Shown here in pieces: positions 23,190 through 41,381 of a stretch of 64,000 nucleotides of DNA. Made by a program: the position numbers and the translations under genes. This DNA comes from Candidatus Gottesmanbacteria bacterium (GTDB taxonomy: Bacteria > Patescibacteriota > Microgenomatia > UBA10105 > UBA927): NCBI GenBank assembly GCA_963714095.1, contig OY970230.1:134206-198205 (forward strand). Direction: 5' to 3'. Positions within the stretch are counted from its first letter, which is position 1; every line of letters starts with the position of its first letter. The notes under the pieces are model-generated. The model had not been told where the DNA came from. It searched no databases and was given only the letters and a program-made list of their open reading frames with translations.

Positions 23190-23245
23190 CAGATCCTTAG
23201 GAAGGAAGTATCAAAAATTAGTACAAAACATGATATATTAATTAA

Positions 23246-25470: not shown

Positions 25471-25523
25471 ACAAAACCCGGGATCGTAAATTGAAGTATA
25501 TAGTAATATGAGAACATATTATC

Positions 25524-26270: not shown

Positions 26271-26281
26271 GTCACAAATCT

Positions 26282-26317
26282 TAACTTCTCTGTCTCAAAA
26301 ATGCGGGGATTTATAGG
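26282..26317. repeat. copy 2 of the ~36-nt repeated element (TAACTTCTCTGTCTCAAAAATGCGGGGATTTATAGG)
   Basis: Lies 11 nt after the stop of the 25524..26270 gene. Its antisense reads ...IPAFLRQRS*, identical to the FtsZ C-terminus encoded antisense to copy 3. Confidence 0.5.
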
Positions 26318-26332
26318 ACAGTCGCTTATTTC

Positions 26333-26355
26333 GCTTCGATCTCCCTCACTACACC
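26333..26355. repeat. R1 repeat copy B (ACCAAAATGGCACCGTGCATATC)
   Basis: 22/23 nt identical to 23167..23189. Sits in the mosaic intergenic region 26271..26538. Confidence 0.5.
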
Positions 26356-26538
26356 AAAATGGCACCGTGCATATCAAAGTCTCCAATGAAAATGTAACAG
26401 GGAAGTGAAATAAAATCAACACGAACAATTTCTTGAAGCTAGTTTATGGATTTAGACTAATTTATCTGACATCATTTCACAAACTTCTTGCTACGACGCT
26501 CTGTTTTTAGTATTTTGTAGTATAATACCTATATTCCT

Positions 26539-27318
26539 ATGAAAGACATTCAAAACGAGAAAGACAAGCGGAATATAGCTCTTCAACTTGTGGGAATTAA
26601 AGACCTTATTCTTCCCGTTGTTATTGAAAATAAAAACGGAGAACCCGTCCAAATTTCTGCGACATTTAGCTGCTATACAGATTTGCCTTCCCATCAACGC
26701 GGCACACACATGAGCCGTCCCGCGCAACTATTACATACGCTTGAGGATAAACCGTTAACGCTATCCCAGCGGAAAGACATTGCAACACGCATTAAAGAAT
26801 CGCTTCATGCAAAACTCGCACTGCTAAATTTTACCTTCACCTATCATATTAAAAAAGAATCGCCGGTATCAAAAATGAAGAGTTATATGTCATATCCTTG
26901 CGAAATGCAGACAGTTTCAAACGGAATAAAATCAGCAAACCGCACAACCGTTCACGTACCGGTACTCCTACTCTGTCCGTGCAGTAAAGCCATAAGCGAA
27001 CAGAATGCCCATAATCAACGGGCAGTTATTACCATCCAAGTTGAATCAACAAATTCAGTGTTTCTCGAGGATCTTATTACCATCGCGGAAAACGCAGCAA
27101 GCAGCCCGCTCTATACAATTTTAAAACGTCCGGATGAAAAGTATGTAACAGAACGTTCATACGCGAATCCAAAATTTGTTGAAGATGCCGTAAGGGATGT
27201 CGCTTTAAAATTGAAAAAAATCAAAGCTATAACTGCCTTTAGTGTCGAATGTGAAAGCCAGGAATCAATTCATGGTCACAACGCATATGCACGGTTCTCA
27301 CAAGGAGGGCTTCAATGA
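26539..27318 (+). CDS. folE2: GTP cyclohydrolase FolE2/MptA-type (first step to the 7-deazaguanine precursor)
   Basis: Motifs QRGTHMSR, CPCS and ESIHGHNAYA, characteristic of FolE2 (DUF198). A TATAAT lies at about 26520. Confidence 0.8.
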   Translation: MKDIQNEKDKRNIALQLVGIKDLILPVVIENKNGEPVQISATFSCYTDLPSHQRGTHMSRPAQLLHTLEDKPLTLSQRKDIATRIKESLHAKLALLNFTFTYHIKKESPVSKMKSYMSYPCEMQTVSNGIKSANRTTVHVPVLLLCPCSKAISEQNAHNQRAVITIQVESTNSVFLEDLITIAENAASSPLYTILKRPDEKYVTERSYANPKFVEDAVRDVALKLKKIKAITAFSVECESQESIHGHNAYARFSQGGLQ

Positions 27319-27692
27319 AATCTGCGATCGTGTATATCAATAAAGAGTTTACCTTTGAAGCGGCACATAAACTGAATAACTATAACGGAAAATGCGCGAA
27401 TCTTCACGGGCATACGTATAAACTGCGCGTTACAACAAAGGGACCGGTTCACAAAAACGGCTTAGCTATTGATTTCGTTGATCTTAAAAAGATTGTGGAA
27501 GACAAAATTCTTATCCGGGTAGATCATACCTATTTAAATGACCTGATAAGCCAGCCTACGGCAGAAAATATTATCGTTTGGATGTGGCAAACACTGGACA
27601 AATACTTACCGCTCTATGAATTGTCTCTCTGGGAGACGCCAACCAGCTGGGTGACGTATCAGGGAAAGCATAAAATCTATGCCAACAAATGA
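27315..27692 (+). CDS. queD: 6-carboxy-5,6,7,8-tetrahydropterin synthase
   Basis: CANLHGHTYKL zinc/catalytic motif, 125 aa. AAGGAGGG Shine-Dalgarno immediately upstream. ATGA overlap with folE2. Confidence 0.85.
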   Translation: MKSAIVYINKEFTFEAAHKLNNYNGKCANLHGHTYKLRVTTKGPVHKNGLAIDFVDLKKIVEDKILIRVDHTYLNDLISQPTAENIIVWMWQTLDKYLPLYELSLWETPTSWVTYQGKHKIYANK

Positions 27693-28428
27693 ATGCTACC
27701 AACCTACACCAGGCGAAATCCAAGCGGCTCAGTTGAAACCGAACCTACTTAAAGTTTCAGGCGATTCCACTTTTTTTACTATTCAGGGAGAAGGAGACAG
27801 CATAGGAAAACCGGCAGTATTTTTACGTCTGCATCTGTGTAATCTCACCTGCACTTGGTGCGATACACCCTACACATGGAAGCGCACCACTCCGGAATTC
27901 TGGCAGGAAAGCCAGGATTGGGATATAGATCGGGCAGTATCGGAAATCAGCATCTTCAATCAACATCGACTGGTTCTTACGGGCGGAGAACCCATGATGC
28001 AACAAAAAATGATCTCGCAATTACTGAAGCGTGTTCCTGATTGGGATATAGAAATTGAAACAAACGGAACAATCTCTCCTATTCAGGATCTTGCAGAGCG
28101 GTGCCAATTCAATGTGTCACCAAAACTCGCCAATTCAGGCAATAAAGAACGATCACGATTAAAACCAGATGTTTTACGTGCATATAACGCCTTACCCAAA
28201 ACAACATTTAAGTTTGTGGCACAATCCGTTGATGATGTTCGGGAAATTGACGCAATTGTTGCAGAATGTGCTATTGACCCTCATAAAATTATTATTATGC
28301 CAGAGGGAAAAAATGAGGCATCAATCCGTGAACATGCACTCGCCGTAGTGGAAGAAGTAAAGAATCGCGGCTGGCGCCTGGTTCCGAGACTTCAGGTTAC
28401 CTTATGGGGTAATCAGCGAGGTATCTGA
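27679..28428 (+). CDS. queE: 7-carboxy-7-deazaguanine synthase (radical SAM)
   Basis: CNLTCTWCDTPY radical-SAM CxxxCxxC motif in a QueE-type context (FFTIQGEGDSIGKPAVFLRL), 249 aa. Confidence 0.85.
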   Translation: MPTNECYQPTPGEIQAAQLKPNLLKVSGDSTFFTIQGEGDSIGKPAVFLRLHLCNLTCTWCDTPYTWKRTTPEFWQESQDWDIDRAVSEISIFNQHRLVLTGGEPMMQQKMISQLLKRVPDWDIEIETNGTISPIQDLAERCQFNVSPKLANSGNKERSRLKPDVLRAYNALPKTTFKFVAQSVDDVREIDAIVAECAIDPHKIIIMPEGKNEASIREHALAVVEEVKNRGWRLVPRLQVTLWGNQRGI

Positions 28429-29154
28429 GATATTGAACAACCAGGGCTCTTTGACGAATTCTTCCGAATACCCTTTAGACGACATCATCTGCTGAGCCTT
28501 TTGTTCAATTTTTATCAATAAAGAGAATGTTTGTTGAAAATTTCTCGAGTCGAATGATTCTAGCTCACGTATGAACGAGCTTTCTATTAATTTCTCTCTT
28601 CTTATAAAATACCATCTCCACTTAAATGTGGGCACGGGCTTATCATAATAGATAAAACAGAATTTTGATAACGCATCGAGTGTTTTAAACATAAACATCC
28701 ATGATGTAATCAGATCACGCCGTTTCATTGTTTTTTCAAAATTGTAGGATTGAAACAATTCTTTGTATAGTCTGATGAGTATCCTTTGATATATTTTTTT
28801 ATGATATTTATTTAACTCCAAAAACTTCTTCTTCAATATTTTTTGAGGGTCATACAATATATGAGCCTTCTCCCTAATCCAAAATTCATCCGTGTCGGGA
28901 TCTGTTTTTTGTAATAGCTGACAAGAGGAAACTGTGTCTACTTCTATCTTTACCTCTTCGCTTTTGAACTGACTCATCTTAAATTCACTGTCTTCTTTAT
29001 CACAAACGAGTTTAATATCAATATCAGCAAGAGCGTCAGATATTCCGTATGCGGTTGATCCAATCCAGATGATACCCTGAAGACCGGGGACATTTAAATA
29101 CTTTTTGCTTACGTTTAAAGCAATTTTTTTAAAATCAGTAACATTTTTCATCAT
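28402..29154 (-). CDS. Pol-beta superfamily nucleotidyltransferase (ANT/Lnu-like fold)
   Basis: NTase motif IWIGSTAYGISDALADIDIKLV (G[SG]...D.D). Alpha-helical C-terminal region. Confidence 0.6.
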   Translation of the reverse strand: MMKNVTDFKKIALNVSKKYLNVPGLQGIIWIGSTAYGISDALADIDIKLVCDKEDSEFKMSQFKSEEVKIEVDTVSSCQLLQKTDPDTDEFWIREKAHILYDPQKILKKKFLELNKYHKKIYQRILIRLYKELFQSYNFEKTMKRRDLITSWMFMFKTLDALSKFCFIYYDKPVPTFKWRWYFIRREKLIESSFIRELESFDSRNFQQTFSLLIKIEQKAQQMMSSKGYSEEFVKEPWLFNISDTSLITP

Positions 29155-30119
29155 ACGGGTATTCCGGTAACTCTTAGTATATCGCGCTTTATATCACCAT
29201 GAAATCCGGGCTTATTCCATTGCCAAATCCAATAATTAAGACTTTCGAACGGTTTATAATAATTAACCTGGATTGTAATATCGTCTTTATTCATTTTTCC
29301 TACTGAAGCATATCCTTCGTGAAAAGCATCGCTTAAATCCATATTTTCCCGCGAATTTTCAAAAGCAGCACTCACTCTGGTTAAATCCCAACCGGGAATC
29401 CAATATTTCGCGAGTTCGAAATCTACAATACCGGCAATTCTCTGAGTATCAGGATTGATGATTATATTCTGTGGAGCAAAATCACCGTGACATAAGGTTG
29501 GTCTAACGCGGCAATGAGTAAGAATCGGACTTGTTAACCTATCAGTAAAATAATTAACGTGGGCTTGATGTAAAACACCTAAACTAAGTCCAAATTCAAG
29601 GTGTCTGAGTGTGTCTTGAGTAAAACAATCCTTCCAATCTGGAAATTTATCACCGGCATCGCCAACATCACCAAAATAGGGAGCGGTAATTCCGTGTATT
29701 CGGGATAAATATGTTCCTACTTCATGCGCGATTGCCCGTAAACTATCTCTGGAAAAATTGGATCCATTCATTAACGTATCAAAAGGTACTCCCCTAACTT
29801 CCTCCAAAAGTATTGCTGCATATCCCGACTTATCTTTTCCCAGATAAGTTGATTGAGAGGTATGTATACCCAAAGTCTCCCGAATCAATCGGGAAACAAT
29901 CAACTCTCTTTGAACTTTCAGCTCAGGTAATTCTCCCATTTCATCCGGCGTATTCGGAAAAATTTTTAAATAATATGATTTCAAATACGGAGACGCGTCG
30001 TGAGAAAAATATAAAAGGGTGTTTTGACTCGGTCTATCAACGGATTTAAACGAATACCCTTGATATGCTTCACCAACTTGCACTACGTGTTGAAAATATT
30101 CAGCATTCATTGCTACCAT
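29151..30119 (-). CDS. APH/choline-kinase-family small-molecule kinase (aminoglycoside-phosphotransferase-like fold)
   Basis: Brenner motif LCHGDFAPQNIII and metal-binding GIVDFE. Confidence 0.7.
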   Translation of the reverse strand: MVAMNAEYFQHVVQVGEAYQGYSFKSVDRPSQNTLLYFSHDASPYLKSYYLKIFPNTPDEMGELPELKVQRELIVSRLIRETLGIHTSQSTYLGKDKSGYAAILLEEVRGVPFDTLMNGSNFSRDSLRAIAHEVGTYLSRIHGITAPYFGDVGDAGDKFPDWKDCFTQDTLRHLEFGLSLGVLHQAHVNYFTDRLTSPILTHCRVRPTLCHGDFAPQNIIINPDTQRIAGIVDFELAKYWIPGWDLTRVSAAFENSRENMDLSDAFHEGYASVGKMNKDDITIQVNYYKPFESLNYWIWQWNKPGFHGDIKRDILRVTGIPV

Positions 30120-31300
30120 CCTATTTGCACTATTCCTTTTGGATTTGCTACAGCTTTATCCATTCGTTGAAAATCTTCCATATATTCGCACACCCGACAT
30201 TTACTGCCCGGCGTCATATCCGGAAAATGACCTTTCCTGAACTCAGAATATTTTTTACCTTCCCAAATATCTGCAAATCGCTCAGACCTGATATTGCCCA
30301 TAATAAATTTATCTCTACTTGTATCAGCAAAAGGACCATTATCATCATAAAGATATAAACAGGGTCTGACGTTACCCTGGGGATCTATCATGACACTGTA
30401 TTCACCGATATGGCACTGAGGGTGATTTTGAGTCTTCAAATATGAAGAGGGCGCAAGTACATTGTTATCGAAATCTTCAACCCGGATTAAACCGTGTGCA
30501 GCATATTTTATTGCAGATGAAAGATCCACTTCAGTGACAGGATGTAGATTTTCCAATCTGGCGATAAAAGACTTTAATATATCGAACGCTGAGTGGTTAA
30601 GCTCGTATGATCCGGTTCCATGAACGAGCGCCATCCTGAGCGTATCAACCCCGATATGATCTATATCCTCTGCAGTAACCGCGGTCAAATCCCGAATATT
30701 ACCTTTTTGAATAGTAAAGTTTGCAGATATTCTTACGTGATTCGCATCTAACCCCCATTCATCACGTGCTTGTCTTAATCGATGGATTGATTGTAATGTT
30801 CTCCCAAATGCATCAAAGGTTCCGTCAGGCATTCTGATTCCGTTATGGCTATCCTTATTAAACCCATCAACTGAAAAGGCAACATCAGTTTCCGTATCAA
30901 GTACCGCCTGTATAACAGCATCATCTAATTTTATTCCCGCAGTATATAACTCCGGTTTTATTCCATTCGTCCGTATATCAGTCAAAATTTGAGGCAAGTC
31001 TTCTCTCATAACAGGCTCCGTCCCGACGAGGGTTATCTTTCTTGTATGAAGCGTTTGTAACTGATCCATCAAGTCATCAAGCTCGGAAGTATTTAATGCG
31101 TTCTCCGATGGAGCACCTGAAGAAATCCACTTGTGCCGATCGCACATTTGACACCTCAGATAACAGGCATAATTAATTTGTAAAATTACGTTATTCGGAC
31201 CGATAGTCGCTGGGAGTTCACCGCTTCTGGATAAATCCTGATATACGCGTTGATCGACCTCTTTAAGTGAATAAGGGTTATAACGAAAAGCTTCATTCAT
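30113..31300 (-). CDS. radical SAM enzyme with C-terminal SPASM/twitch-like Cys cluster
   Basis: NYACYLRCQMCDRHKW (CxxxCxxC) at the N-terminus. C-terminal Cys motifs ...CHIGEY...RPCLY...GSKCRVCEY. Confidence 0.7.
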   Translation of the reverse strand: MNEAFRYNPYSLKEVDQRVYQDLSRSGELPATIGPNNVILQINYACYLRCQMCDRHKWISSGAPSENALNTSELDDLMDQLQTLHTRKITLVGTEPVMREDLPQILTDIRTNGIKPELYTAGIKLDDAVIQAVLDTETDVAFSVDGFNKDSHNGIRMPDGTFDAFGRTLQSIHRLRQARDEWGLDANHVRISANFTIQKGNIRDLTAVTAEDIDHIGVDTLRMALVHGTGSYELNHSAFDILKSFIARLENLHPVTEVDLSSAIKYAAHGLIRVEDFDNNVLAPSSYLKTQNHPQCHIGEYSVMIDPQGNVRPCLYLYDDNGPFADTSRDKFIMGNIRSERFADIWEGKKYSEFRKGHFPDMTPGSKCRVCEYMEDFQRMDKAVANPKGIVQIGW

Positions 31301-31369
31301 AATTTGCGTTTAAATACAAAAACAGATAGTATTATATACTAAATTAGGTTGATATGACAATAAAAAGCT

Positions 31370-32254
31370 ATGGTCAAGCATGAAATGTTTTTACCAATTG
31401 AAGCCCCTGCATTTATCCGACACGCGCCACTGGATTTGAGCATTGTCATACGTTGCGGCAGAGACAAAAACGGACTAATCCGTTTTCTTACATCAGTTAA
31501 TGAAAACGTTGAAGTAGTCGTAAGCGCAGCAGAAGATGCTTCATTTATTCACGAATTTCAGGAAAAAGGGTACAAAATTGCTCCTCATACATACGGAAAC
31601 TGGAGCAGCGCCGCACAGGCGGGAATAAATGCATCTACCAATAATGACGTTATTATCATGGATTCTGATTCAGTTTTTGGTGAGGGCGCAATAAATACGA
31701 TTGATAAAGCACTTAAAGACGGTCACTTATTAGTACAACCAAGAATTATCTTTATGGATAACGGAACGCCGTTAAGTAAAATAATCGCACAGGCAAGAAC
31801 CTATGAAAACAGAAGAGTACCCAAATCATATTCTCCGGGTTTAGGATTGAAAGTGCAGGAATTGACTGAAAGAATCGGAGTCGGAGGAAACGTATATAAC
31901 TTATCGGTTGCCTACGGAGATGACGGAGATTTAGATCAACGAAGAAGAAATGCAGGCATAGACGTATATGTTGCGGAGGACGCATTAATATATTCAGATC
32001 CGAATACGCTTGAACATGAATTAAAAACAGCGTATCGTTTTGGAATCGGAGAAAGGCAATCGCAACAGGGAAAAACGAACCAAAAAAATATCGTTGATAT
32101 CATGAATGAGGAATTCTTTTCTAAAGAAGCTAAGGAATACTATATGAATCTTATACGACAGTTTGGCATACCAACTGCCATGTTTATGATGTTCTGCAGA
32201 TCCGCCTATGTCACTGGGTTTCAAACGGCGGGCAATATAAAAACTACCCTATGA
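31370..32254 (+). CDS. GT-A fold (GT2-like) glycosyltransferase-like protein
   Basis: LDLSIVIRCGRD (GT2 N-terminal strand) and DxD-like VIIMDSDSVF. Confidence 0.45.
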   Translation: MVKHEMFLPIEAPAFIRHAPLDLSIVIRCGRDKNGLIRFLTSVNENVEVVVSAAEDASFIHEFQEKGYKIAPHTYGNWSSAAQAGINASTNNDVIIMDSDSVFGEGAINTIDKALKDGHLLVQPRIIFMDNGTPLSKIIAQARTYENRRVPKSYSPGLGLKVQELTERIGVGGNVYNLSVAYGDDGDLDQRRRNAGIDVYVAEDALIYSDPNTLEHELKTAYRFGIGERQSQQGKTNQKNIVDIMNEEFFSKEAKEYYMNLIRQFGIPTAMFMMFCRSAYVTGFQTAGNIKTTL

Positions 32255-33831
32255 ACGAACGACTACTATCAGGTCCCGTTGCGTACGCAGCCACACAATA
32301 TAAAGAATATAACACTACTGATCAGGCGAGTAAGCTTGAGCATTTAGATTCGGTTGGCAGAGCGTATATCGAACAAGGTCACGCTCCCTTTTATGATGCA
32401 CAATTTCTGGAACATCATATTGCGAAACTAAGAGAAGAACAAAGAGGTAACAATTTTTCTTTTACATGGATGCCGGAAAATCCCCACGGTAACTTTTTAA
32501 GGCAAAATACCCATCGTGATGGGTACATCATGCCCGAACCAGCGACGATTGAAAGTATCGAGAAGCTTATTCATGATGAACCGGATATACGAAATATTGT
32601 TTTTGCTGTATATTCCAACGGGTATAGTATTTTCAGAGATATTGCAACACATCTTCACAAAGAACATCCGCAAATCGAAATCGTCGCGGGAGCAGTAGGA
32701 TCGTTATATCGCGAAACACAACAATTAGCTCAGCATATCCTTGGGGGTAACCAGATTGATGATATGCGGAGATTACTTGGTGAACCGGTTTTAAATCCTC
32801 TTCACATATCCACTGCCCCATCTCATACGTCTACCACATATAACGGTGCTACGAAACAAAGCACATATGGAGTTATGATAAGCAGCTACGGTTGTCCATA
32901 TCGATGTGATTTTTGTCCGACTACAGCACAATATCAGGGTAAATACAGTACTCCGCATAGTGCGGATGAAATTGTGAAAGCCATACATGAAGCACACGAT
33001 GCTATCGCTCCTGATAAACCAATAATGTCACTCAGTATTGCTGACCCACAGGGTTTGGGCGATGTTCCTGTATGGAAGGAGGTTTTTCAAAGATGCCAAA
33101 ATACGGGTTTCATGGTAGAACTGGCGACAACGACATCTTCAAAAATATTAGAACAGTATTCTCCTGATGAACTAACGCAGGGAGATTTATACCTTTCGTG
33201 TGTGAATATAGGGGTTGAATCTATGATATCACCCTATGTAAAAAACCGCGGAATAGATTTGAGGAAAGAAATTGAAAAGTATCAGTCTGCCGGGATACGT
33301 ATAGCTGCAACATTTATCGTTGGGCATGATTGGCATAACCAAACAAATATTTGGGAGGACGTTGATAAAATTCAACAGTTAGGAGCGTCCGGCTATATCG
33401 TTTCCAATATGATGATGGAACGCGGGACAACTATTTTTAGTAAAATGCAAGCTGATGGAAGACTATTGGATGTGCCGCCTGAATTTGAGGCGACATACGG
33501 ATATCAGTCATTCAGACATCCGAACTTTGAACCGGGTTTCAATGCCATGGTTCCTATCCTTTCACAAATTGAAGCCAAGCTAAATCAAGGAATTGATGTT
33601 TTTACCGGTGATGAACACTTCTATCTTCAAAGGGTTAATGCGCGAATTACAGAAACTCAAACTCAATTAAGAACACGAATGAAAGAAATAGAGAGAACTG
33701 TTATGGCAGATAGTTCATTGCATCCGGATGCAAAAACTTCTGAAATCAAAAAACAACAGGTACAACTATACTATGATACTATTTTCAGGAATATTGACCT
33801 GTTTCACCCATATATAACCTGGAATGTCTAA
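32251..33831 (+). CDS. radical SAM enzyme, class-B-like (putative N-terminal Rossmann/B12-binding-like domain followed by radical SAM core)
   Basis: SSYGCPYRCDFCPTT (CxxxCxxC) at about residue 215, preceded by a flavodoxin-like block IVFAVYSNGYSIF...IEIVAGAVGS. Confidence 0.55.
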   Translation: MNERLLSGPVAYAATQYKEYNTTDQASKLEHLDSVGRAYIEQGHAPFYDAQFLEHHIAKLREEQRGNNFSFTWMPENPHGNFLRQNTHRDGYIMPEPATIESIEKLIHDEPDIRNIVFAVYSNGYSIFRDIATHLHKEHPQIEIVAGAVGSLYRETQQLAQHILGGNQIDDMRRLLGEPVLNPLHISTAPSHTSTTYNGATKQSTYGVMISSYGCPYRCDFCPTTAQYQGKYSTPHSADEIVKAIHEAHDAIAPDKPIMSLSIADPQGLGDVPVWKEVFQRCQNTGFMVELATTTSSKILEQYSPDELTQGDLYLSCVNIGVESMISPYVKNRGIDLRKEIEKYQSAGIRIAATFIVGHDWHNQTNIWEDVDKIQQLGASGYIVSNMMMERGTTIFSKMQADGRLLDVPPEFEATYGYQSFRHPNFEPGFNAMVPILSQIEAKLNQGIDVFTGDEHFYLQRVNARITETQTQLRTRMKEIERTVMADSSLHPDAKTSEIKKQQVQLYYDTIFRNIDLFHPYITWNV

Positions 33832-33852
33832 CGTCGTTCAGGTTGTCATTAC

Positions 33853-34932
33853 GTGCCAAACTGTAGTAGAATCAGCCAAGGAATTACTATGGTACGGAAT
33901 CTGGAAATCGAACCACGCAGGCTTATCGAAAATCAACGTACGTTGCCACCGATATGGTGGGACAGTTTGAACGGACTTACCGACCCTCATAAAGTATTAT
34001 TAGTTACTACTCCTTCTGCAGAGTTGCAGTTTAATCCAGTCTCAGCTGGATTTAATATTGTTGACCATCTGCACGTGGCAGATGAAACGCAAAAAACAGC
34101 AGACGAGATGCTACTCTACCCCGGCGATACTATTGAAAAAGTTTTCGCTGTGGGCGGCGGAAGAGCAATAGATATGGCAAAACTTATAGCCCACCGATGG
34201 GATAAAGAATTAATTGCCATTCCGACGATTCTTTCGACCGATGCGTTTCTGGTAAATTCTACGGGAGTGAGAACTGACGGATGCGTCAAATATATTCAAT
34301 CTAAACAACCTGATCTGATACTTTTCGACATGGATGTATTAAAACAAGCACCCTATGTATATCATGCTTCCGGTTGTTGTGATGTTCTCTCCATTGTTAC
34401 CGCCGTATCGGATTGGAAATTGGCTCATGACAAAGGTAAATTACTTCCCGATGAACCATATATCGAATCGGTTGCACAAACATCAAAAGCGATAGTGAGC
34501 TATCTATTTGAAAATGCTGAAAATATTTCTGCAAAAACTCCTGAAGGGCTTACTGCCATCATCAATGCTCTTTCTATGGAAGTTGAGTTATGTAATCTGT
34601 ATGGAAATAGCCGACCGGAAGAAGGCGGTGAACATTTTTTTGCATATGCTATTGAATCCCGTTTACCTCACGCAATACATGGAGAACTAGTAGGACTTGG
34701 TATTCTCTTAACTGCATATATGCAGCACCAACCATGGCAAGAGGTACAACATTTTATGGACAGCATCGGAATGAATTATCGCCCTCAAGGTATATCTACC
34801 CAGATAATCACTGACACACTGGAGGGAATGCGTGAGTATGTTGAACGTCATGCGCTTCGATACAGTATCTGGAATGAATATCATCATAATGAAAAAAACA
34901 TCCAGACATTTCTAAATGCCATACATTTATGA
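33853..34932 (+). CDS. iron-containing ADH superfamily polyol(-phosphate) dehydrogenase, glycerol-dehydrogenase/G1PDH(AraM)-like
   Basis: VFAVGGGRAIDMAKLIA (NAD-binding GGG..D.AK) and IAIPTILSTDAFLVNS (IPT..STDA block of GldA/G1PDH rather than the VPTTLLAQVDS of DHQS). Confidence 0.6.
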   Translation: MPNCSRISQGITMVRNLEIEPRRLIENQRTLPPIWWDSLNGLTDPHKVLLVTTPSAELQFNPVSAGFNIVDHLHVADETQKTADEMLLYPGDTIEKVFAVGGGRAIDMAKLIAHRWDKELIAIPTILSTDAFLVNSTGVRTDGCVKYIQSKQPDLILFDMDVLKQAPYVYHASGCCDVLSIVTAVSDWKLAHDKGKLLPDEPYIESVAQTSKAIVSYLFENAENISAKTPEGLTAIINALSMEVELCNLYGNSRPEEGGEHFFAYAIESRLPHAIHGELVGLGILLTAYMQHQPWQEVQHFMDSIGMNYRPQGISTQIITDTLEGMREYVERHALRYSIWNEYHHNEKNIQTFLNAIHL

Positions 34933-35633
34933 ATGAAATACCACTAAAAACAACAGAACTTGAGGCGGTCATGAAAGGGTTAGAGCGACAATCAACAAAA
35001 CGGGTTGTCCTACTCTATTCCGGCGGCGCGGACAGTACTGCAGCAGGACTAAAACTTCGTGAAGACGGATATTCCGTCTACCCTATATTCTTTGACTATA
35101 ATCAAAGCGCCCGGGACGCAGAGCGTTTTCTTGTAAGTAATGCTCCCGATACACTTGGTTTTGAAAAAACGAAAATCGTGCGAACAGACTTACTTACAGA
35201 CCTAAGTCACAGCGCACTGCTTGGAGGCGACGCCAAAGATGACACATCGGCATGGGTTCCCGGTCGAAACACGCTTTTCATGATTGCTGCGGGCATTTAT
35301 GGACATCAGATAGATGCTGACGGCATCGCCATCGGATATATGCGTTCAGATGAAGGGGTATTCGGAGATTCAAATAAGCTGCATCACAAAATAGTAGAAA
35401 CACTTCTTGAAAAAACACTTTCCCGACCTATGGAAGTTCGCTTACCTTTGGCACAAATGACAAAAATGGACGTATTGCAGTACCTCAACGATCACAGAGT
35501 TATTGATCTTACCGTATCGTGTTGGAATGCAACACTTCAGGGTAATACAGTTCAAACGTGCCATACATGCGCAAACTGCGTCGAACGTGAAGAAAGCCTT
35601 CGTGGGATTATCTACCAATACGGTAAAAAATAG
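34929..35633 (+). CDS. queC: 7-cyano-7-deazaguanine synthase
   Basis: PP-loop VVLLYSGGADST. C-terminal zinc motif CWNATLQGNTVQTCHTCANC. ATGA overlap with the preceding Fe-ADH gene. Confidence 0.85.
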   Translation: MNEIPLKTTELEAVMKGLERQSTKRVVLLYSGGADSTAAGLKLREDGYSVYPIFFDYNQSARDAERFLVSNAPDTLGFEKTKIVRTDLLTDLSHSALLGGDAKDDTSAWVPGRNTLFMIAAGIYGHQIDADGIAIGYMRSDEGVFGDSNKLHHKIVETLLEKTLSRPMEVRLPLAQMTKMDVLQYLNDHRVIDLTVSCWNATLQGNTVQTCHTCANCVEREESLRGIIYQYGKK

Positions 35634-35676
35634 AGTTTAGATTGATTTTACGGTCTAAAAGCGTATAATATTCCCT

Positions 35677-36648
35677 ATGCCTGTCTCAGAAATTCTCAAA
35701 CGACTCGACGAATACGACATCCGTCCCAACGAACAACTTGGGCAACATATTCTCATTGACCCCAAATGGCTTGGCTATATTGCTGATCAAACCTGTCGTG
35801 GCGGACATGTTATAGAAATCGGAGCCGGACCAGGGAACCTGACTGAACCCATTGCGGCGCTCGCAAAATACGTTACTGCGATTGAACTGGATCGCCGATA
35901 TGAACCCATGTTGCAGGATCTTCATGAACGACATCCCAACGTAACCGTTATATTCGGGGACGCCATTAAGCAGGATTTTCGACAATTACAAAAACAATCT
36001 GATAGAACACTGCAGATTATCGGAAATATCCCCTATCACATTTCAGAACCGCTTATGAAAAAACTTACTGATGTCCCTATGGAAGATGCCGTGCTTACGG
36101 TCGGCGATAAACTGAGTGAAACATTACGGGAAACGAATCCTTCTAGCATTAATTTCACAAGACTTTCTCTTCTTGCATTAGGTTTTTTCGACGTAGATTT
36201 ATTAGCTAAAATTCCAAAAAGTGCCTTTTATCCAATGCCAAGGACAGAATCGCAAATCATAAGGATTACGCCGAAAATGAAAGCGGAATCATCCAATCCC
36301 GGTATTCGCGTTATTCAACAATTATTTCTAAGCGGTGATAGTTCATCAGTCGAAAATATTATGAGAACGGCACTCAACGGCGGAATATCGGATCGAAAGC
36401 TACGATACAAAGATGAACAGAATAGATACGAACGTCGGGAAACACGAAGATCGTTGGAAATGATGAGGCGCGGATATAATGCTTCTCAAGACCTCTCGGA
36501 AGAAGATGGGCAACAAGGCATGTCTAAAGATCCGATATCACTAATGAACATACCGGGACAGATTCTCACCCACAGATTTTCCAGTCTTAGCAATGACGAA
36601 GTGTGCACGCTCTCAAAAGCTATCTTAGACGTCTATCCAAGTCAATAA
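35677..36648 (+). CDS. KsgA/Dim1/Erm-family rRNA adenine N6-dimethyltransferase-like protein with a ~100-aa basic C-terminal extension
   Basis: QHILIDPKW, HVIEIGAGPGNLTEPIA and IIGNIPYHISEP (NLPYNIS-type catalytic motif). The C-terminal extension is unusual: RKLRYKDEQNRYERRETRRSLEMMRRG. Confidence 0.65.
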   Translation: MPVSEILKRLDEYDIRPNEQLGQHILIDPKWLGYIADQTCRGGHVIEIGAGPGNLTEPIAALAKYVTAIELDRRYEPMLQDLHERHPNVTVIFGDAIKQDFRQLQKQSDRTLQIIGNIPYHISEPLMKKLTDVPMEDAVLTVGDKLSETLRETNPSSINFTRLSLLALGFFDVDLLAKIPKSAFYPMPRTESQIIRITPKMKAESSNPGIRVIQQLFLSGDSSSVENIMRTALNGGISDRKLRYKDEQNRYERRETRRSLEMMRRGYNASQDLSEEDGQQGMSKDPISLMNIPGQILTHRFSSLSNDEVCTLSKAILDVYPSQ

Positions 36649-37399
36649 ATCCGGAACCTTTAGATTTTTCTATCAACTCTATTTCACGACTCCACTGTTC
36701 GTTCATGGCACATTTTTTACTCACCAAATCAGATACCATTTCTATTATCGGGTTGCTATCCTGATTATCTGATAAATTAATCTTCTTATCATCTATATAA
36801 ACCGACTTATTCAAAAGATCCAACACTATCTTCCCTTTTCGTTTCAAATAAATGGTTATCTCTCTTCTTGGATTGCCATATCCGCAATAAAGTTTCCAGG
36901 GAATTTTTTTCTTGGTTAAATAAAACCATAAATCAACATCGTGTATCCCTAGATCATATAACGGATCACATTCATAATCCCATGGTGGCTTCATTCCTAA
37001 TCGGTAACTTGTTATATAATCAATTTCTGACAGTTCAATAGTTTTCTTAAAATATTTGACGGCAGGATTATATCGTTCTAAAGTTGACTGATAAAAAAGT
37101 AATTTTTTCTCTTTGGCTAACGTTTCCAATTCTTTTGCATCGGATGATGAAAAACATACGGGCTTTTCGCATAAAACATTATATCCGTGTAACAGGAGCA
37201 TTTTTGAACATTTAAAATGTAATGGGGTTGGTGTCGCGACGATTGCAAAATCAACAGTCTCACCATATCGTATAAATTTTTCAACTGTATTGAAGTACAT
37301 CCCGTGAGATACCGGAAGGATATCCACGATGTATGTTGCATGAAGAAGGCTATCATAAAGTTTTCCCATTCTTCCGTAACCGATTATTGCTGTAGTCAT
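36620..37399 (-). CDS. Gfo/Idh/MocA-family NAD(P)-dependent oxidoreductase
   Basis: N-terminal Rossmann TAIIGYGRMGK and the family EKP motif (VLCEKPVCFS). Confidence 0.6.
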   Translation of the reverse strand: MTTAIIGYGRMGKLYDSLLHATYIVDILPVSHGMYFNTVEKFIRYGETVDFAIVATPTPLHFKCSKMLLLHGYNVLCEKPVCFSSSDAKELETLAKEKKLLFYQSTLERYNPAVKYFKKTIELSEIDYITSYRLGMKPPWDYECDPLYDLGIHDVDLWFYLTKKKIPWKLYCGYGNPRREITIYLKRKGKIVLDLLNKSVYIDDKKINLSDNQDSNPIIEMVSDLVSKKCAMNEQWSREIELIEKSKGSGFIDLDRRLR

Positions 37400-37403
37400 A
37401 CAA

Positions 37404-38468
37404 TTATTTATTCACAAAATCAGTAAGTTTTTTCGCAAGAGTCTGCCAAGACAGGTCTTTTACCAAATTCGTATTGTATATTCTGCAAGCAGCGTCCAAT
37501 AATACAGCCCGTTCGATACCTTTACGCCATGCATCAACAGTGGAAGCAACCAAATACCCGGTCTTTCCATTTTTCAACAGCCAGTCAATTCTTCCGGTTC
37601 CCATAACGATCGGTTTGCCGACGGCTAAATACTCGCTGATGGCAATGGGACTACAATCCGTTTCAACCGGGAATACAAGCACATCGGCGATATTTGTATA
37701 TTTAGGCACATCAGCATAGGAAACAGCACCGCAAAGAATAACATTTTTACGTTTTGGAATTTCCCTCTTCACAGGCCCGTCTCCTACGATAAGGAAAATA
37801 TAATTATCCGGAATTGCGCGTGCAATGAGTTTAATATGTTCATAAAACCTACCGAGCTTTCCCGTATATACAACGATCTTTTTATTGAGTAAATCAGTAT
37901 GGAATGTGCTTGAAAAATCTTTTTTCAATGCTACAACATCCGGCTGCGAGTACGGATAAAAAAGTGTTTTATCGTACCCATTAGGAATAACGATTACATC
38001 CTTTGTTTTTAATCCGGACTGCTGGAGCATTTTTAAATTTACTGGGGATTGAGAAACAACTTTGTTTGCTTTTTCCAAAAGGTATGAGAGTCCGTATTGT
38101 AATAAATAATACGTTGCGTTTATACCATATTCCTTCAGGTACATCTCGTTATACCAATCGATACTGTCAAATAGCAAAGAAATTTTACATGTTTCTTCTA
38201 TAAGCAACCCGCTCAGAGGATTATCTACCATCAAAAGATCGAATCGCCGGGTGCGCAGATATTTCTGCAAACGCTGTCTTTCGCGGATAACATCATCAAT
38301 TGAACAAATAACTGCATGGCGGAAAAAACTAAAAGAAATATCCGTACAATGTTGTGCTAAAAACTGTTCCCGCTGGGGAAATCCGGATACATACGACTGG
38401 CTGAAATTCTGTAAGCTTTGAGCATAAACTTTATCGCCGATTTTCAGTATCTTTTTCATTGAAACCAT
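37404..38468 (-). CDS. GT4-family (GT-B) glycosyltransferase
   Basis: C-terminal VLVFPVETDCSPIAISEYLAVGKPIVMGTGR resembles the GT4 E..E region. Confidence 0.55.
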   Translation of the reverse strand: MVSMKKILKIGDKVYAQSLQNFSQSYVSGFPQREQFLAQHCTDISFSFFRHAVICSIDDVIRERQRLQKYLRTRRFDLLMVDNPLSGLLIEETCKISLLFDSIDWYNEMYLKEYGINATYYLLQYGLSYLLEKANKVVSQSPVNLKMLQQSGLKTKDVIVIPNGYDKTLFYPYSQPDVVALKKDFSSTFHTDLLNKKIVVYTGKLGRFYEHIKLIARAIPDNYIFLIVGDGPVKREIPKRKNVILCGAVSYADVPKYTNIADVLVFPVETDCSPIAISEYLAVGKPIVMGTGRIDWLLKNGKTGYLVASTVDAWRKGIERAVLLDAACRIYNTNLVKDLSWQTLAKKLTDFVNK

Positions 38469-39463
38469 CCTTGTAATGCATGGGTAACTCTATGTATCTC
38501 CGCATGAGTAAGATTCCAACGGCATGGTATGGCAACGATAGAAGAAGTTACATCTTTATAGTTTTGTTTTTGATCATCGGGGAGCATGTCTTCGTCATAA
38601 TATACCAATGTTTGGATACCCTGTTTATCCATATATGTTCTAAATTTATTTCTATCCGTGATAAGCATATTAAAAACTGAATAGGTATGATAGGTGTTCG
38701 CTTCTTCCGCTAAAAACGGTTGATATCCCGGAATAACTTTTTTATACTCGTGTGCTATATCCCGCTGGGTTGCGATACGTGTGTCATACCCCTTAAGCTC
38801 TTTGAGAAGATATTCTGCTTTAATTTCATCAATACGCAGATTCAGTGCGATCGAATCTGTCATCGCTCCGTTTTCCCGCCCGGATTCTATAAATGTTTTC
38901 ATCTGCCGGTAATAGTGTTCATCACTCGTAACAACGGCTCCCGCGTGACCACAAGCATGAAGTGATTTGGTTGGATAAAAGCTGAAGCAACCTATTTTCC
39001 CGAAGGTACCCACAAATTTACCGTTAAACTTTGCTCCGAATGCCTGACAGGCATCCTCAATATAATTCTGCATTTTTATCTGACCAAGCAAATAATGTGG
39101 CTGACCGAAAAGATGAGTAATCGTCATCAAACTCGACCGTGATGGTATTCTGACATTCTTCTTCGGATTGTAAGGAATATACCGTTTAAAATTCACGGTA
39201 TACTGCAGCATTTTTGCCGGCTGATATGTTGCAGGGAACGTATATGGATCAACAGTTAAACTTTTATAGTTATCTTTCAACACCCAATACGCGGCAAGGA
39301 GCGCTGCCGTTCCGTTATTCGTTAATACAACGTACGGAGCATGGAGATATTCCTTTAATTTTTCCTCCAGCTCTTTTGTTTTTTTACCGTCAACCCACTT
39401 ACCGCTGTTATAGATATCACTTGTATAGTTCGAACCTAATTTATATATGGAAATATACTTCAT
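38456..39463 (-). CDS. DegT/DnrJ/EryC1/StrS-family PLP-dependent sugar aminotransferase
   Basis: DACQAFGAKFNGKFVGTFGKIGCFSFYPTKSL block with PLP Lys (YPTKSL). Confidence 0.75.
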   Translation of the reverse strand: MKYISIYKLGSNYTSDIYNSGKWVDGKKTKELEEKLKEYLHAPYVVLTNNGTAALLAAYWVLKDNYKSLTVDPYTFPATYQPAKMLQYTVNFKRYIPYNPKKNVRIPSRSSLMTITHLFGQPHYLLGQIKMQNYIEDACQAFGAKFNGKFVGTFGKIGCFSFYPTKSLHACGHAGAVVTSDEHYYRQMKTFIESGRENGAMTDSIALNLRIDEIKAEYLLKELKGYDTRIATQRDIAHEYKKVIPGYQPFLAEEANTYHTYSVFNMLITDRNKFRTYMDKQGIQTLVYYDEDMLPDDQKQNYKDVTSSIVAIPCRWNLTHAEIHRVTHALQGWFQ

Positions 39464-40185
39464 AATAAATTCAGCAAATCAATAGCCTTATGATTTAATG
39501 GCTGATAATTATTTACAATAAACGCTTCACCATACGATGCTCCGATAGACTTTCCCCTAAATTCCGCAAGATGGAACAATTTAGTACGTAACCATTGCTC
39601 ATCAGCTCCATGCTCACCTTTCACTGATGCATACAATGAAAATGCTTCTATTTTTCTTTGGATATTTTGCTTCGACAATTCAGATACGAAATGGAAACTA
39701 AATATAGATGTCATCTCCAAATCAATCTCTCCCTGCAACACAACAGGCGCTTTCCATGTTTGTGTACCGCCACAGAGTTCACAGTCGCTTTGGAAATTAG
39801 CTTCAGGAACAATTTCTCCAAGCGTTCTATGGTCTATATGCTTATCTTCTGCATGATGTGTGATAATAACATCCGGTTGAACACGTCGAATCTCTTTAAT
39901 GGTTTTTTGAATAAGCAGTCCTTTGTCTTTTTGAAGACGCATGTCCTGAAGTTTTAGAAATTTCACGGAATAACCCAAATATTTACTGCTTTTAGTCGCT
40001 TCGCTCATTGCTCTATGGCGACGCGTGTTTTGCGTCTCCGTTTTAAAGTACGCCTGGTCATTCAGGGTGTAATAGGTTACGAAAACTTTATGACCGTGCT
40101 TCACGAGCTTATCCATCATCGCTCCGCACATGATCACTTCATCATCCGGATGTGCCACTAAAACAAGAATTTTCATAGATTGCAA
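39460..40185 (-). CDS. PIG-L/LmbE-family N-acetylglucosaminyl deacetylase
   Basis: VLVAHPDDEVIMCGA zinc-binding motif and downstream HHAEDKHIDH. Confidence 0.75.
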   Translation of the reverse strand: MQSMKILVLVAHPDDEVIMCGAMMDKLVKHGHKVFVTYYTLNDQAYFKTETQNTRRHRAMSEATKSSKYLGYSVKFLKLQDMRLQKDKGLLIQKTIKEIRRVQPDVIITHHAEDKHIDHRTLGEIVPEANFQSDCELCGGTQTWKAPVVLQGEIDLEMTSIFSFHFVSELSKQNIQRKIEAFSLYASVKGEHGADEQWLRTKLFHLAEFRGKSIGASYGEAFIVNNYQPLNHKAIDLLNLL

Positions 40186-40299
40186 TAACTAGAATATATT
40201 GCTAGGACGGGCTTATTATATCATTTTACTCAAATACACCTATAGAAACCAGTCTTAAAATAACAACTTCGGGGATACTTGCATTGAAACAGCCCACAA

Positions 40300-40572
40300 T
40301 CATTTATTCGAATCAAATGGCGCACTTATATTACATTCCTTACAAGACAAATAATATAAAACAGTGCCTGTAGGCATTGATTGACCAAATAATGGTCTGG
40401 TAACGGCATTTTTGATAGTAACTTCTAACGGGACACTTTTCGAACAATTTTCCAAATGAGGAAAATTGCCTCTCAATTCCTCTTGAGAATAAACAGCAAG
40501 ATTTGTTTTCCAAGAAAAACCTTCCTTTAAGAATTGTCCGATTACGTGAAGTTTATTGGTTATTTTTTCCAT
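40300..40572 (-). CDS. hypothetical small protein
   Basis: 90-aa ORF with no recognisable motifs. Sits between the LmbE gene and a methyltransferase gene on the same strand. Confidence 0.3.
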   Translation of the reverse strand: MEKITNKLHVIGQFLKEGFSWKTNLAVYSQEELRGNFPHLENCSKSVPLEVTIKNAVTRPLFGQSMPTGTVLYYLSCKECNISAPFDSNK

Positions 40573-40589
40573 AAATATTTTGTTTAAAA

Positions 40590-41348
40590 TTATATCCTCT
40601 TTGCAACCAGTACGATTCTATGTCGAGGAAGTTGAATACCCTTTTCTGTTTTGAATTTTACTACGTATTCTTTGAGCAACGCTCCGTCTTTTTCGGAATC
40701 AAAATCTTCAAAAATAGGCACTCCTTGTAAAAATTTGTCTACATCCTCATACGATGCATAATATTCGTCATAAAAATATTCCTGGGCGAAAACGATGTTA
40801 AATCCTGCGTCAATAAGTTTTTGTTTTTCCTTTTCTAACCTTGAAGTACTCCATGCCTTATATCCCTGCCCTCGCCCAAATACTTCTTTGATTGCCTGAC
40901 AATCCCTTTCACCTATATCAATTCCCACAAAATAGCCGTCTGGTTTCAATAATCGTTGAAACTCAAGATATGGTGTTGGTCCCCGGCGGGAAAAAATAAC
41001 ATCAAACGATCTATCAGAAAATGTTGTTCTTTGCGCGTCTTGAAGTTTAAATGTAAAATTTTTAACTACGAGTACCTTTTGTTTTTCTCCCGCAACTTTG
41101 AGTAATTCCTTGGATGTATCAATACCTGTAATCGATAAAAAAGACTTGGCGATTCCAAAGGAAAACTTGCCGTCTCCGCAACCCGCATCAAAAGCTTTTA
41201 TCTTGTTACCCGCTAAACCAAGGAGTTTTTCTTTGAAAACTTTTTCAGGATCTCCGGCTGGATATTCCGTACGGTAATCAACACGACCGGTACCAAAGGC
41301 ATATCCACCGAATTTCTTTGCAACTTTATCGTAAAAATTTGTGGTCAT
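40590..41348 (-). CDS. class I SAM-dependent methyltransferase
   Basis: Motif I KAFDAGCGDGKFSFGIA and motif II VIFSRRG. Confidence 0.65.
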   Translation of the reverse strand: MTTNFYDKVAKKFGGYAFGTGRVDYRTEYPAGDPEKVFKEKLLGLAGNKIKAFDAGCGDGKFSFGIAKSFLSITGIDTSKELLKVAGEKQKVLVVKNFTFKLQDAQRTTFSDRSFDVIFSRRGPTPYLEFQRLLKPDGYFVGIDIGERDCQAIKEVFGRGQGYKAWSTSRLEKEKQKLIDAGFNIVFAQEYFYDEYYASYEDVDKFLQGVPIFEDFDSEKDGALLKEYVVKFKTEKGIQLPRHRIVLVAKRI

Positions 41349-41381
41349 ACAGCTATTTTACCATTGAAGAAAGTAAATGTA

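Follow-up and report, generated by a model that had tools for sequence, protein, structure and literature searches.

We analysed a stretch of 64,000 nucleotides from a Candidatus Gottesmanbacteria genome (GenBank assembly GCA_963714095.1, contig OY970230.1, positions 134,206 to 198,205 of the forward strand), referred to below as the window, in which genes of 7-deazaguanine synthesis are interleaved, within positions 26311-41381, with genes of sugar-tailoring families. Genes were assigned by Pfam and NCBIfam searches, the latter with curated equivalog cutoffs, and all substantial open reading frames (ORFs) of the 64-kb window were scanned. The searches returned the families that had been predicted, at the same positions, in a preliminary description of this DNA made from its letters alone (Table 1). 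One correction is needed: of the two S-adenosylmethionine (SAM) methyltransferases which that description counted in the block 26539-41348, only one (40590-41348) belongs to it, and the other (25524-26270) lies outside the repeat that brackets the cassette.

Table 1 Genes of the cassette and the repeat copies at its borders
Feature	Position	Strand	Remarks
ftsZ 3′-end relic, left border of the insertion	26281..26310	(-)	encodes IPAFLRQRS* amid otherwise non-coding DNA
FolE2, GTP cyclohydrolase IB (GTP to dihydroneopterin triphosphate, H2NTP)	26539..27318	(+)	Pfam GCHY-1 2.7e-83; NCBIfam FolE2 equivalog 266 bits, cutoff 215
QueD, 6-carboxytetrahydropterin synthase	27315..27692	(+)	PTPS 1.3e-33; TIGR03367 97.5 bits, cutoff 89.25
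QueE-like radical SAM enzyme (7-carboxy-7-deazaguanine synthase), divergent	27679..28428	(+)	orthologues in most related loci
Minimal Pol-beta nucleotidyltransferase (NTase250; DUF4037; weakly ANT(4′)-like), accessory module B	28402..29154	(-)	clade-1 loci only
APH-family (aminoglycoside phosphotransferase) kinase, accessory	29151..30119	(-)	Pfam APH 3.1e-15; in window, L002, L011, L020, L022, L040
SPASM radical SAM enzyme, BlsE-like, putative nucleobase-sugar remodelling, accessory module B	30113..31300	(-)	
GT-A (GT2-like) glycosyltransferase, DSD motif, accessory module B	31370..32254	(+)	weak Pfam GT2; profile vs PDB: GalT1 5hea 5.7e-5
Signature 526-aa radical SAM enzyme (rSAM526), AprD4-like	32251..33831	(+)	B12-domain-like N-terminus and CX3CX2C core
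FeADH2, Fe-ADH_2 dehydrogenase resembling glycerol-1-phosphate dehydrogenase (G1PDH) and glycerol dehydrogenase	33853..34932	(+)	alternative start ATG 33889; NAD and metal motifs conserved
QueC*, non-canonical QueC-subfamily ATP-dependent enzyme acting on 7-carboxy-7-deazaguanine (predicted nitrile synthase or amine ligase)	34929..35633	(+)	
KsgA/Erm-family N-methyltransferase catalytic domain (RrnaAD), variable C-terminus	35677..36648	(+)	RrnaAD 1.4e-36; NIPY and SAM motifs kept
Gfo/Idh/MocA oxidoreductase (GFO; sugar or NDP-sugar dehydrogenase)	36620..37399	(-)	best match archaeal UDP-GlcNAc 3-dehydrogenase, 63 bits
GT4 (GT-B) glycosyltransferase	37404..38468	(-)	weak matches to teichuronic-acid and exopolysaccharide transferases
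DegT/DnrJ/EryC1 pyridoxal-phosphate aminotransferase	38456..39463	(-)	top PDB: Gln:scyllo-inosose transaminase 7b0d 9e-31, QdtB, WbpE
PIG-L/LmbE de-N-acetylase, N-acetylglucosamine (GlcNAc) type	39460..40185	(-)	BshB1-like, 90 bits; AHPDDE conserved
Class I SAM methyltransferase (Methyltransf_11/25/31)	40590..41348	(-)	PF08241 1.6e-13; orthologues in L002, L010, others
Live ftsZ 3′ end, right border of the insertion, att-like copy	41382..41411	(-)	

The ATGA start/stop overlap by which queC had been described as coupled to the Fe-ADH/G1PDH-like gene is indeed present at 34929, and the gene of the GT-A glycosyltransferase, which adjoins that of the SPASM enzyme, is translationally coupled to the rSAM526 gene. 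A promoter and terminator scan gave counts no higher than chance; overlaps and gene order are therefore the basis for the operon structure. A gap of 404 nt between the PIG-L and methyltransferase genes (40186-40589) holds an ORF of 90 amino acids (40300-40572), which has no family match and no homologue in any related locus and is probably not a gene. A search for riboswitches and other RNA elements, with Rfam models at gathering thresholds on the window and four related loci, found tRNAs only. As had been noted before for tRNA-guanine transglycosylase (TGT), QueF, QueA and DpdA, no tgt, queA, queF, arcS or dpdA was found among the scanned ORFs of the window; no PF01702-type (DpdA) protein is present there, and the only ParB there, at 10482-11303, is of the canonical chromosomal kind, with HTH_ParB.

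The segment 26311-41381 is a discrete insertion of low G+C content (GC) downstream of ftsZ, which regenerated the end of that gene, as follows from the copies of the ftsZ 3′ end at both borders, one a relic and the other live. The preliminary description had the cluster bracketed by two copies of a short repeat, and the bracketing is real, although the identity of the repeat is new: it consists of the final 30 nt of ftsZ, the two copies differ by 3 mismatches, and none of 100 shuffles matched as well. The surroundings of the relic copy are non-coding, with many stop codons. GC amounts to 0.38-0.43 from about 18 to 42 kb, compared with 0.47-0.50 in the flanks. A third, decayed copy of the ftsZ 3′ end was found at 18348-18377, so that the three copies, one live and two relics, mark two successive insertions behind ftsZ, the segment 18378-26280 being the older, second one. 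The older segment encodes a PMT_2 glycosyltransferase, a 1048-aa PQQ-beta-propeller/DUF5060/apiosidase-like protein, a sulfatase, a 214-aa protein without a family and a SAM methyltransferase, and none of its genes recurs among the related loci. No integrase or transposase was found in 26311-41381 or in 18378-26280.

The genes of the cassette are a co-inherited and mobile unit, and the copy in the window is horizontally acquired. A search of 5.8 billion proteins for homologues of rSAM526 gave 16 close ones (39-71% identity), every named one of which belongs to Patescibacteria, the candidate phyla radiation (CPR). With further loci collected from homologue neighbourhoods, a scan of GTDB species genomes and a metagenome scan with a QueC alignment, the cassette genes were found to recur in about 40 non-redundant loci, mainly of Patescibacteria, with differing flanks. 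Gene order is shuffled and the flanks are unrelated in L002, L004/5, L006/7, L008-L013, L015, L017 and about 30 metagenome loci; in L010 thirteen cassette genes form one collinear operon. The recurring set consists of a GTP cyclohydrolase I (FolE or FolE2), QueD and QueE, the Fe-ADH_2 gene followed by QueC, a radical SAM enzyme of 509-526 aa, a block of PIG-L, DegT, GT4 and Gfo/Idh/MocA genes and, often, the KsgA-like methylase. Most carriers of the family are Microgenomates-group CPR; among named relatives, Gottesmanbacteria and Roizmanbacteria come closest to the window. The family also occurs in metagenome-assembled genomes labelled Pedobacter, Gammaproteobacteria and Methanosarcinales, labels which may be binning errors.

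As a control, 38 metagenome loci with the cluster-type QueC, called here QueC*, were compared with 42 loci carrying canonical QueC, the counts being taken from loci of at least 6 kb (17 and 26, respectively). FeADH2, PIG-L and the KsgA-like RrnaAD protein each accompany the cluster-type QueC in 12 of the 17 loci, rSAM526 in 11, GNAT in nine, GFO in seven, GT4 in six and DegT in five, while each of these families scores 0/26 at canonical QueC. Among non-redundant loci with at least 4 kb on each side the frequencies are 10/11 for FeADH2, 9/11 for PIG-L and for rSAM526, 8/11 for GT4 and for GFO, and 7/11 for DegT. FeADH2 is thus the most constant partner of QueC*; it lies directly upstream of the latter in 16 of 27 cases and immediately downstream of rSAM526 in most loci. 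The annotated 10-kb flanks of the related loci contain no TGT, DpdA, QueA or QueF.

QueC* departs from the canonical enzyme. The protein of the window (34929-35633) scores 97 bits with TIGR00364, whose cutoff is 150, and belongs to a discrete subfamily of about 98 sequence clusters at 41-91% identity, below which nothing appears until 27%; source databases label it '7-cyano-7-deazaguanine synthase'. The motifs of nine QueC* sequences were compared with the refined QueC signature of Libby et al. 2026 (PMC13329287). The SGGxDS P-loop (SGGADS), VPxRN (VPGRN) and the C-terminal four-cysteine site C...CxxCxxC are kept, with a zinc-site spacing of C(x)12-13, not C(x)8. In place of YxQxHxxE stands YxQ(x)5E, so that the histidine is lost, YPDC is replaced by FGD[S/N] and CYN (the Y189 position) by CWN, and an N-terminal extension of 24 aa is conserved. 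The same YxQ(x)5E variant is present in the Cap9 ligase (PMC13329287), which is the third PDB match of QueC*. The complete pathway to 7-cyano-7-deazaguanine (preQ0) announced in the preliminary description is not established, because QueC is non-canonical. FolE2 and QueD pass their equivalog models; the top five NCBIfam matches of the QueE-like enzyme, all of them QueE models, reach 46-101 bits and fall below the cutoffs of 200-300. Formation of 7-carboxy-7-deazaguanine (CDG) by the cassette is well supported at the level of sequence families, while the alteration of two catalytic motifs in QueC* means that the final step may give preQ0 or a CDG-amide. Beside one copy of the cluster (L012) lies a gene of the Vut_1/YhhQ family, the queuosine-precursor transporter family (7569-8264 of that locus). 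This copy retains QueC*, whereas FolE2, QueD and QueE did not turn up within 10 kb of it when orthologues were compared, type-I FolE not having been searched there; such an arrangement points to salvage of a precursor and is a weak argument against QueC* being simply a preQ0 synthase.

For the tailoring enzymes, sequence searches against PDB with the rSAM526 family profile, the SPASM enzyme and the GT4 gave no matches, so that structure prediction was needed. The predicted structure of rSAM526 is closest to AprD4, a diol dehydratase of aminoglycoside sugars (TM-scores 0.46-0.55, identity 11-14%), and that of the SPASM enzyme to BlsE, the nucleobase-sugar decarboxylase of blasticidin (15% identity). 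The earlier designation of the 526-aa enzyme as 'class-B-like' is therefore abandoned, since it is nearer to AprD4 than to any cobalamin methylase. According to a 2017 review, AprD4 was the only radical SAM dehydratase known. FeADH2 is nearest to G1PDH or glycerol dehydrogenase (1e-25) and matches DHQ_synthase only at 0.0024; it was considered as a 2-deoxy-scyllo-inosose synthase (DOIS), and this assignment was rejected, because G1PDH is nearest and no DOIS occurs among the PDB matches. The closest relatives of the DegT protein are glutamine:scyllo-inosose and sugar-3-aminotransferases, and the GT4 matches PF00534 and PF13692 strongly and PF13439 weakly (2.3e-4). The KsgA-like protein reaches 147 bits with the ksgA model TIGR00755 (cutoff 171), covers model positions 1-191 of 256 only, and varies among the loci from 259 to 353 aa owing to its C-terminus. 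It was rejected as a housekeeping KsgA, being below the cutoff, limited to the catalytic half, and present in 12/17 QueC* loci as compared with 0/26 canonical ones. Judging by its family, it may be a self-resistance rRNA methylase or a base-amine methylase.

Variation among the loci separates a common set from accessory parts. The SPASM, glycosyltransferase, APH and nucleotidyltransferase genes constitute a separable accessory module, which also occurs on integrative or conjugative elements. On such elements the BlsE-like SPASM family was met in L100 (3086-17242), with a different deazapurine cluster (a 400-aa QueC-like protein, NUDIX, His_Phos_1, GT4, GT2, carbamoyltransferase, APH and StiP), and in L099 (6203-11182), with GT4, GT2, GNAT and a methyltransferase and without deazapurine genes. 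At the position held in the window by the GT-A gene, directly upstream of the signature radical SAM gene, clade-2 clusters carry a truncated glycyl-tRNA synthetase (GlyRS) paralogue of about 400 aa with the catalytic core and the HGTP anticodon-binding domain (227 bits, cutoff 312; L006 7338-8540, L010 2403-3602, L012 8661-9878, L017 6310-7509), which could serve biosynthesis as a glycyl donor or else act as a resistance copy. Other variant loci add a TobZ/NodU-type carbamoyltransferase (in L013), MFS transporters, GNATs, an HDAC-like deacetylase and a racemase. A minimal operon, FeADH2-QueC*-PIG-L-GT4-QueD-QueE, is found in a non-CPR genome of 66% GC (L015, 5795-13692). Ahead of this operon stand a Peptidase_S66 (MccF-like)-ABC2 fusion and an ABC2 permease, possibly an immunity and export pair. 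In L006 the whole cluster, located beside tRNA-Thr, stands between two copies of a perfect direct repeat longer than 125 nt (~34-178 and 13813-13990), made of the tRNA-Thr-proximal region and the 5′ end of a transketolase gene, although the left copy abuts the contig end, so that an assembly effect is possible. A tRNA-Glu gene stands at the border of the L002 copy, around which no tRNA-derived repeats were found.

Part of the set was also found in a phage. The 42-kb phage contig L016 (the same as L018 and L050; IMGVR_UViG_3300032177_002703) encodes DnaB, primase, uracil-DNA glycosylase, PolA and a clamp loader, and inside this replication module, at 10001-15675, carries QueC*, an antiterminator-like KOW protein, GFO, a short FeADH2, proteins of 218 and 525 aa, FolE and an AAA_33 kinase; DpdA, QueD and QueE are not recognisable on it. 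The 525-aa protein was tried as the signature radical SAM enzyme and rejected (hhalign probability 0.2%), and neither it nor the 218-aa protein has a Pfam or PHROGs family. A second similar contig, L053, has QueC*-GFO-FeADH2-FolE within its replication module. In a scan of the 2.9 million viral contigs of IMG/VR only IMGVR_UViG_3300032177_002703 carries the module.

These results support the proposal of the preliminary description that the genes form a dedicated deazapurine biosynthetic cluster rather than a queuosine, archaeosine or Dpd locus whose neighbours are there by chance: they are inherited together across differing flanks, have no counterparts at canonical QueC loci, are framed by target-site duplications, lack TGT and DpdA in the annotated loci and include radical SAM enzymes resembling those of sugar remodelling. 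From the PIG-L, DegT, GT4 and Gfo/Idh/MocA enzymes together with the AprD4-like and BlsE-like radical SAM enzymes, we conclude that the product of the cassette is probably a small molecule linking 7-deazaguanine to a (deoxy)amino-sugar that has been remodelled. The logic of such a product would most likely be a hybrid of the deazapurine and aminoglycoside/hexopyranosyl-nucleoside pathways. The nature of the product, like every chemical step proposed for it, is what we infer by analogy.

In the proposed pathway FolE2, QueD and QueE would convert GTP to CDG, an assignment at family level which is good in the case of QueE and strong in that of the other two. QueC* would activate the CDG carboxylate with ATP, and the outcome could be either the nitrile preQ0, with N-glycosylation to follow as in huimycin, or an amide of CDG with an amine, as made by RoyL, Cap9 and QatC. 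Judging by families and nearest characterised relatives, GT4 would transfer a GlcNAc-type sugar, from which PIG-L would take off the N-acetyl group, and the Gfo/Idh/MocA and DegT enzymes would oxidise and transaminate a sugar carbon to provide a second amine. Fold and gene adjacency suggest that the AprD4-like enzyme and FeADH2 act as a dehydratase/reductase pair deoxygenating a vicinal diol. The extra module of this genome (GT-A, BlsE-like SPASM enzyme, Pol-beta nucleotidyltransferase and APH) may add and tailor a further sugar or protect the producer, and the SAM and KsgA-like methyltransferases may methylate the product, unless the latter methylates rRNA for self-resistance.

Several observations weigh against a small-molecule product of this kind. 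The proposed chemistry is drawn from likenesses of family or fold at 10-20% identity. The TM-scores of rSAM526 with AprD4 are modest, with class-B methylases close behind. The window copy is without the transporters and regulators usual in biosynthetic clusters, which the small CPR genomes rarely carry at all. The sugar part is not universal, since some loci (L017) lack GT4, DegT and GFO. The KsgA-like protein and the GlyRS paralogue with its anticodon-binding domain come from RNA-associated families, and the location of QueC*, GFO, FeADH2 and FolE in phage replication modules hints at a role in nucleic acids. Finally, the absence of TGT covers the window and the annotated loci, and a tgt gene elsewhere in the genome is possible.

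Some of these points lead directly to the alternative of nucleic-acid hypermodification, in which a decorated 7-deazaguanine would be inserted into tRNA or DNA by a TGT or DpdA encoded elsewhere, or the sugar enzymes would decorate deazaguanine already present in nucleic acid. Besides the phage loci L016 and L053 it would accommodate the near-core position of the KsgA-like methyltransferase, the HGTP domain of the clade-2 GlyRS paralogue, and the helicase, PD-(D/E)XK and HEPN genes adjoining L004/5. We nevertheless regard it as unlikely: no protein of the TGT/DpdA family is present in the window and annotated cellular loci or recognisable in the phage, just one viral contig among 2.9 million has the module, both radical SAM enzymes resemble tailoring enzymes of small-molecule sugars, and pathways to small molecules are typically marked by GT4 with PIG-L, carbamoyltransferase and MFS.

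An envelope glycoconjugate, that is, a GlcN-glycerol-phosphate-type unit made by the G1PDH-like enzyme, GT4 and PIG-L (cf. glycosylphosphatidylinositol, mycothiol and teichoic-type first steps) and placed on a surface polymer or lipid, with deazaguanine as a decoration, seems to us slightly less probable still. The copy in the window does lie between the dcw/mur (division and cell wall) cluster and envelope genes (LytR, PMT_2 glycosyltransferases, sulfatase) and contains no exporter, FeADH2 is nearest to G1PDH, and GT4 weakly matches teichuronic-acid and exopolysaccharide transferases. Yet this context is specific to the present genome, the other loci having unrelated flanks; the conserved set is without a polyprenyl-phosphate transferase, flippase or ligase, and deazapurines in envelope polymers have no precedent.

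That QueC* ligates CDG to an amine of a protein, like Cap9 and QatC, in an immune or signalling system is a reading to which we give very little weight, even though QueC* shares the YxQ(x)5E variant with its PDB match Cap9, the island is mobile and a Pol-beta nucleotidyltransferase is nearby. PADLOC finds no Cap10, CD-NTase (cGAS/DncV-like nucleotidyltransferase) or QatA/B/D; it assigned no system membership and returned only generic QueC, viperin-like and methyltransferase domain similarity, with no match for NTase250, APH, FeADH2 or rSAM526. NTase250 is moreover accessory and not a CD-NTase, and the conserved partners of QueC* are sugar-tailoring enzymes without a role in known deazaguanylation systems. 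The envelope, deazaguanylation or defence, and chance-adjacency explanations are thus, in that order, progressively less likely, and the last, housekeeping queuosine-precursor genes merely lying beside unrelated sugar genes, is effectively refuted in spite of the equivalog matches of FolE2 and QueD and the database name of QueC*, by co-inheritance in about 40 loci with differing flanks against 0/26 at canonical QueC, by the repeat-bounded low-GC insertion, by QueC* and QueE scores below the curated cutoffs, and by the overlapping start and stop codons tying que genes to tailoring genes.

Returning to the deazaguanine-aminosugar small molecule, a bolder version can be formulated, which we put forward as a doubtful conjecture: CPR episymbionts would carry a transferable pathway for a hybrid antibiotic of a new class, aimed at the ribosome, in which QueC* links CDG by an amide to a deoxy-diamino sugar (made by mycothiol-like GT4/PIG-L, the AprD4-like radical SAM enzyme with FeADH2, and GFO with DegT), the KsgA-like protein provides self-resistance, and the QueC*/FeADH2 chemistry has been captured by phage.

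The window contains further loci outside the two insertions. IleRS and LytR lie on one side and the dcw/mur cluster (ftsZ, ftsA, ftsQ, murG, ftsW, murD, mraY ... mraW, mraZ) on the other. Between mraY and murA (50364-55093) the latter holds genes of a FemAB-family transferase, a metallo-beta-lactamase-fold protein, a 445-aa DegT aminotransferase, an alpha/beta hydrolase and a GlmU-like NTP-transferase/hexapeptide protein, a set unusual for a dcw cluster. A polysaccharide-type cluster at 1262-8150, with three GT4s, PMT_2, a SAM methyltransferase and a Wzx-like flippase, may likewise be a variable locus for surface glycans; its GC goes down to 0.34 at 6-8 kb.

With genomes of about 1 Mb, CPR bacteria are considered minimal in their metabolism. 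A family of them on the scale of a tenth of a percent nevertheless devotes 15 kb to a specialised pathway transferred from genome to genome. Should this pathway yield a deazapurine-aminosugar antibiotic or signal, its product would bear on the interactions of episymbionts with their hosts and competitors, and the cluster would add a new scaffold to nucleoside and aminoglycoside antibiotics, two medically important classes. The cluster also defines three enzyme families: QueC*, whose roughly 100 sequence clusters form a discrete QueC subfamily and show changes in the catalytic motifs, a second AprD4-related lineage, and a BlsE-like SPASM enzyme outside actinomycetes. Nothing relevant was found in the literature on CPR/Patescibacteria with preQ0, 7-deazaguanine or aminoglycoside clusters, and no deazaguanine-aminosugar pathway of this kind is described, from CPR or elsewhere, in the literature searched. 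Neither this neighbourhood nor Patescibacteria are mentioned in a 2026 QueC-family survey or in the main text of a 2026 genome-mining survey of deazapurine clusters, which covers about 2 million genomes, mostly of Streptomyces (10.64898/2026.04.15.718813).

Among known systems, Dpd, queuosine, CBASS-IV and Qat can be set apart, since the cassette is none of them. No DpdA with DpdB/DpdC, as in Dpd-type DNA modification, was found, PADLOC giving a generic QueC match only, and neither the window nor the annotated 10-kb flanks hold a queuosine or archaeosine locus (TGT with QueA/QueG/QueH/QueF or ArcS). The QueC homologues which stop at an amide with a bulky amine, i.e. RoyL (roseomycin), Cap9 (type IV CBASS) and QatC, have in common with QueC* the QueC fold, SGGxDS and the C-terminal four-cysteine site, and in QueC* the substrate-pocket motifs are altered. 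A partner protein substrate (CD-NTase, QatB) is absent from the cassette; the ATP-grasp and dioxygenase genes of roy clusters are likewise without a counterpart in it, and RoyL keeps the histidine lost in QueC*.

The likeness to mycothiol and bacillithiol synthesis (MshA/BshA GT4, MshB/BshB PIG-L, a ligase, MshD GNAT) is one of logic only. Here too GT4 and PIG-L would expose a GlcN amine for an ATP-dependent ligase, for which QueC* is the candidate, GNAT occurs in many loci and PIG-L is nearest to BshB1, whereas BshA/BshB models fall far below cutoffs and no cysteine ligase is present. Blasticidin S and mildiomycin pathways combine the cytosylglucuronic acid synthase BlsD with the radical SAM decarboxylase BlsE, and their base is cytosine, where that of the cassette product would be a deazaguanine; compared with BlsE, the SPASM enzyme of the window has a longer SPASM C-terminus, and its module is accessory and restricted to clade 1.

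Neomycin, kanamycin and butirosin pathways contain GT4, PIG-L deacetylase and DegT aminotransferase steps. With aminoglycoside pathways the cassette family shares GT4, PIG-L, DegT and a dehydrogenase, APH, and the carbamoyltransferase of L013 (cf. TobZ), and with the AprD4/AprD3 pair of apramycin the AprD4-like fold of the signature enzyme and a dehydrogenase gene immediately downstream. It is not, however, a 2-deoxystreptamine aminoglycoside cluster, because FeADH2 is nearest to G1PDH and there is no DOIS match; a further difference is its deazapurine core. The resemblance to toyocamycin-type clusters seen in the preliminary description does not amount to membership either: no Pfam family of the toyocamycin/tubercidin defining set (PF00156 phosphoribosyltransferase, GMP reductase, adenylosuccinate synthetase and lyase, HAD or Nudix phosphatase) occurs in the 64-kb window, from which the phosphoribosyltransferase and the purine-salvage-like enzymes are thus absent.

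The closest known systems are the huimycin-type clusters of deazapurine glycosides. In huimycin and dapiramicin producers (Kutzneria, Streptomyces), as in the cassette, clustered genes leading from GTP to deazaguanine are accompanied by a GT-B glycosyltransferase of the PF13439 family, which the GT4 of the cassette matches weakly, and a class I methyltransferase of PF08241, the Pfam family to which the cassette SAM methyltransferase (40590-41348) also belongs; TGT and DpdA are absent, and the sugar is of GlcNAc type, in the cassette by prediction. The hui cluster has seven genes, a canonical QueC 72% identical to ToyM, a LuxR regulator and actinomycete hosts, while the cassette family, compared at family level, has 10-17 genes, QueC*, FeADH2, two extra radical SAM enzymes, no LuxR and CPR hosts. 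The deacetylase which the preliminary description ascribed to huimycin is not part of hui, which consists of preQ0 genes with one methyltransferase and one glycosyltransferase. The radical SAM chemistry and the dehydrogenase, which the same description called undescribed for clusters of these types, are missing from hui, which is also without an aminotransferase; the cassette has these three as well as the deacetylase.

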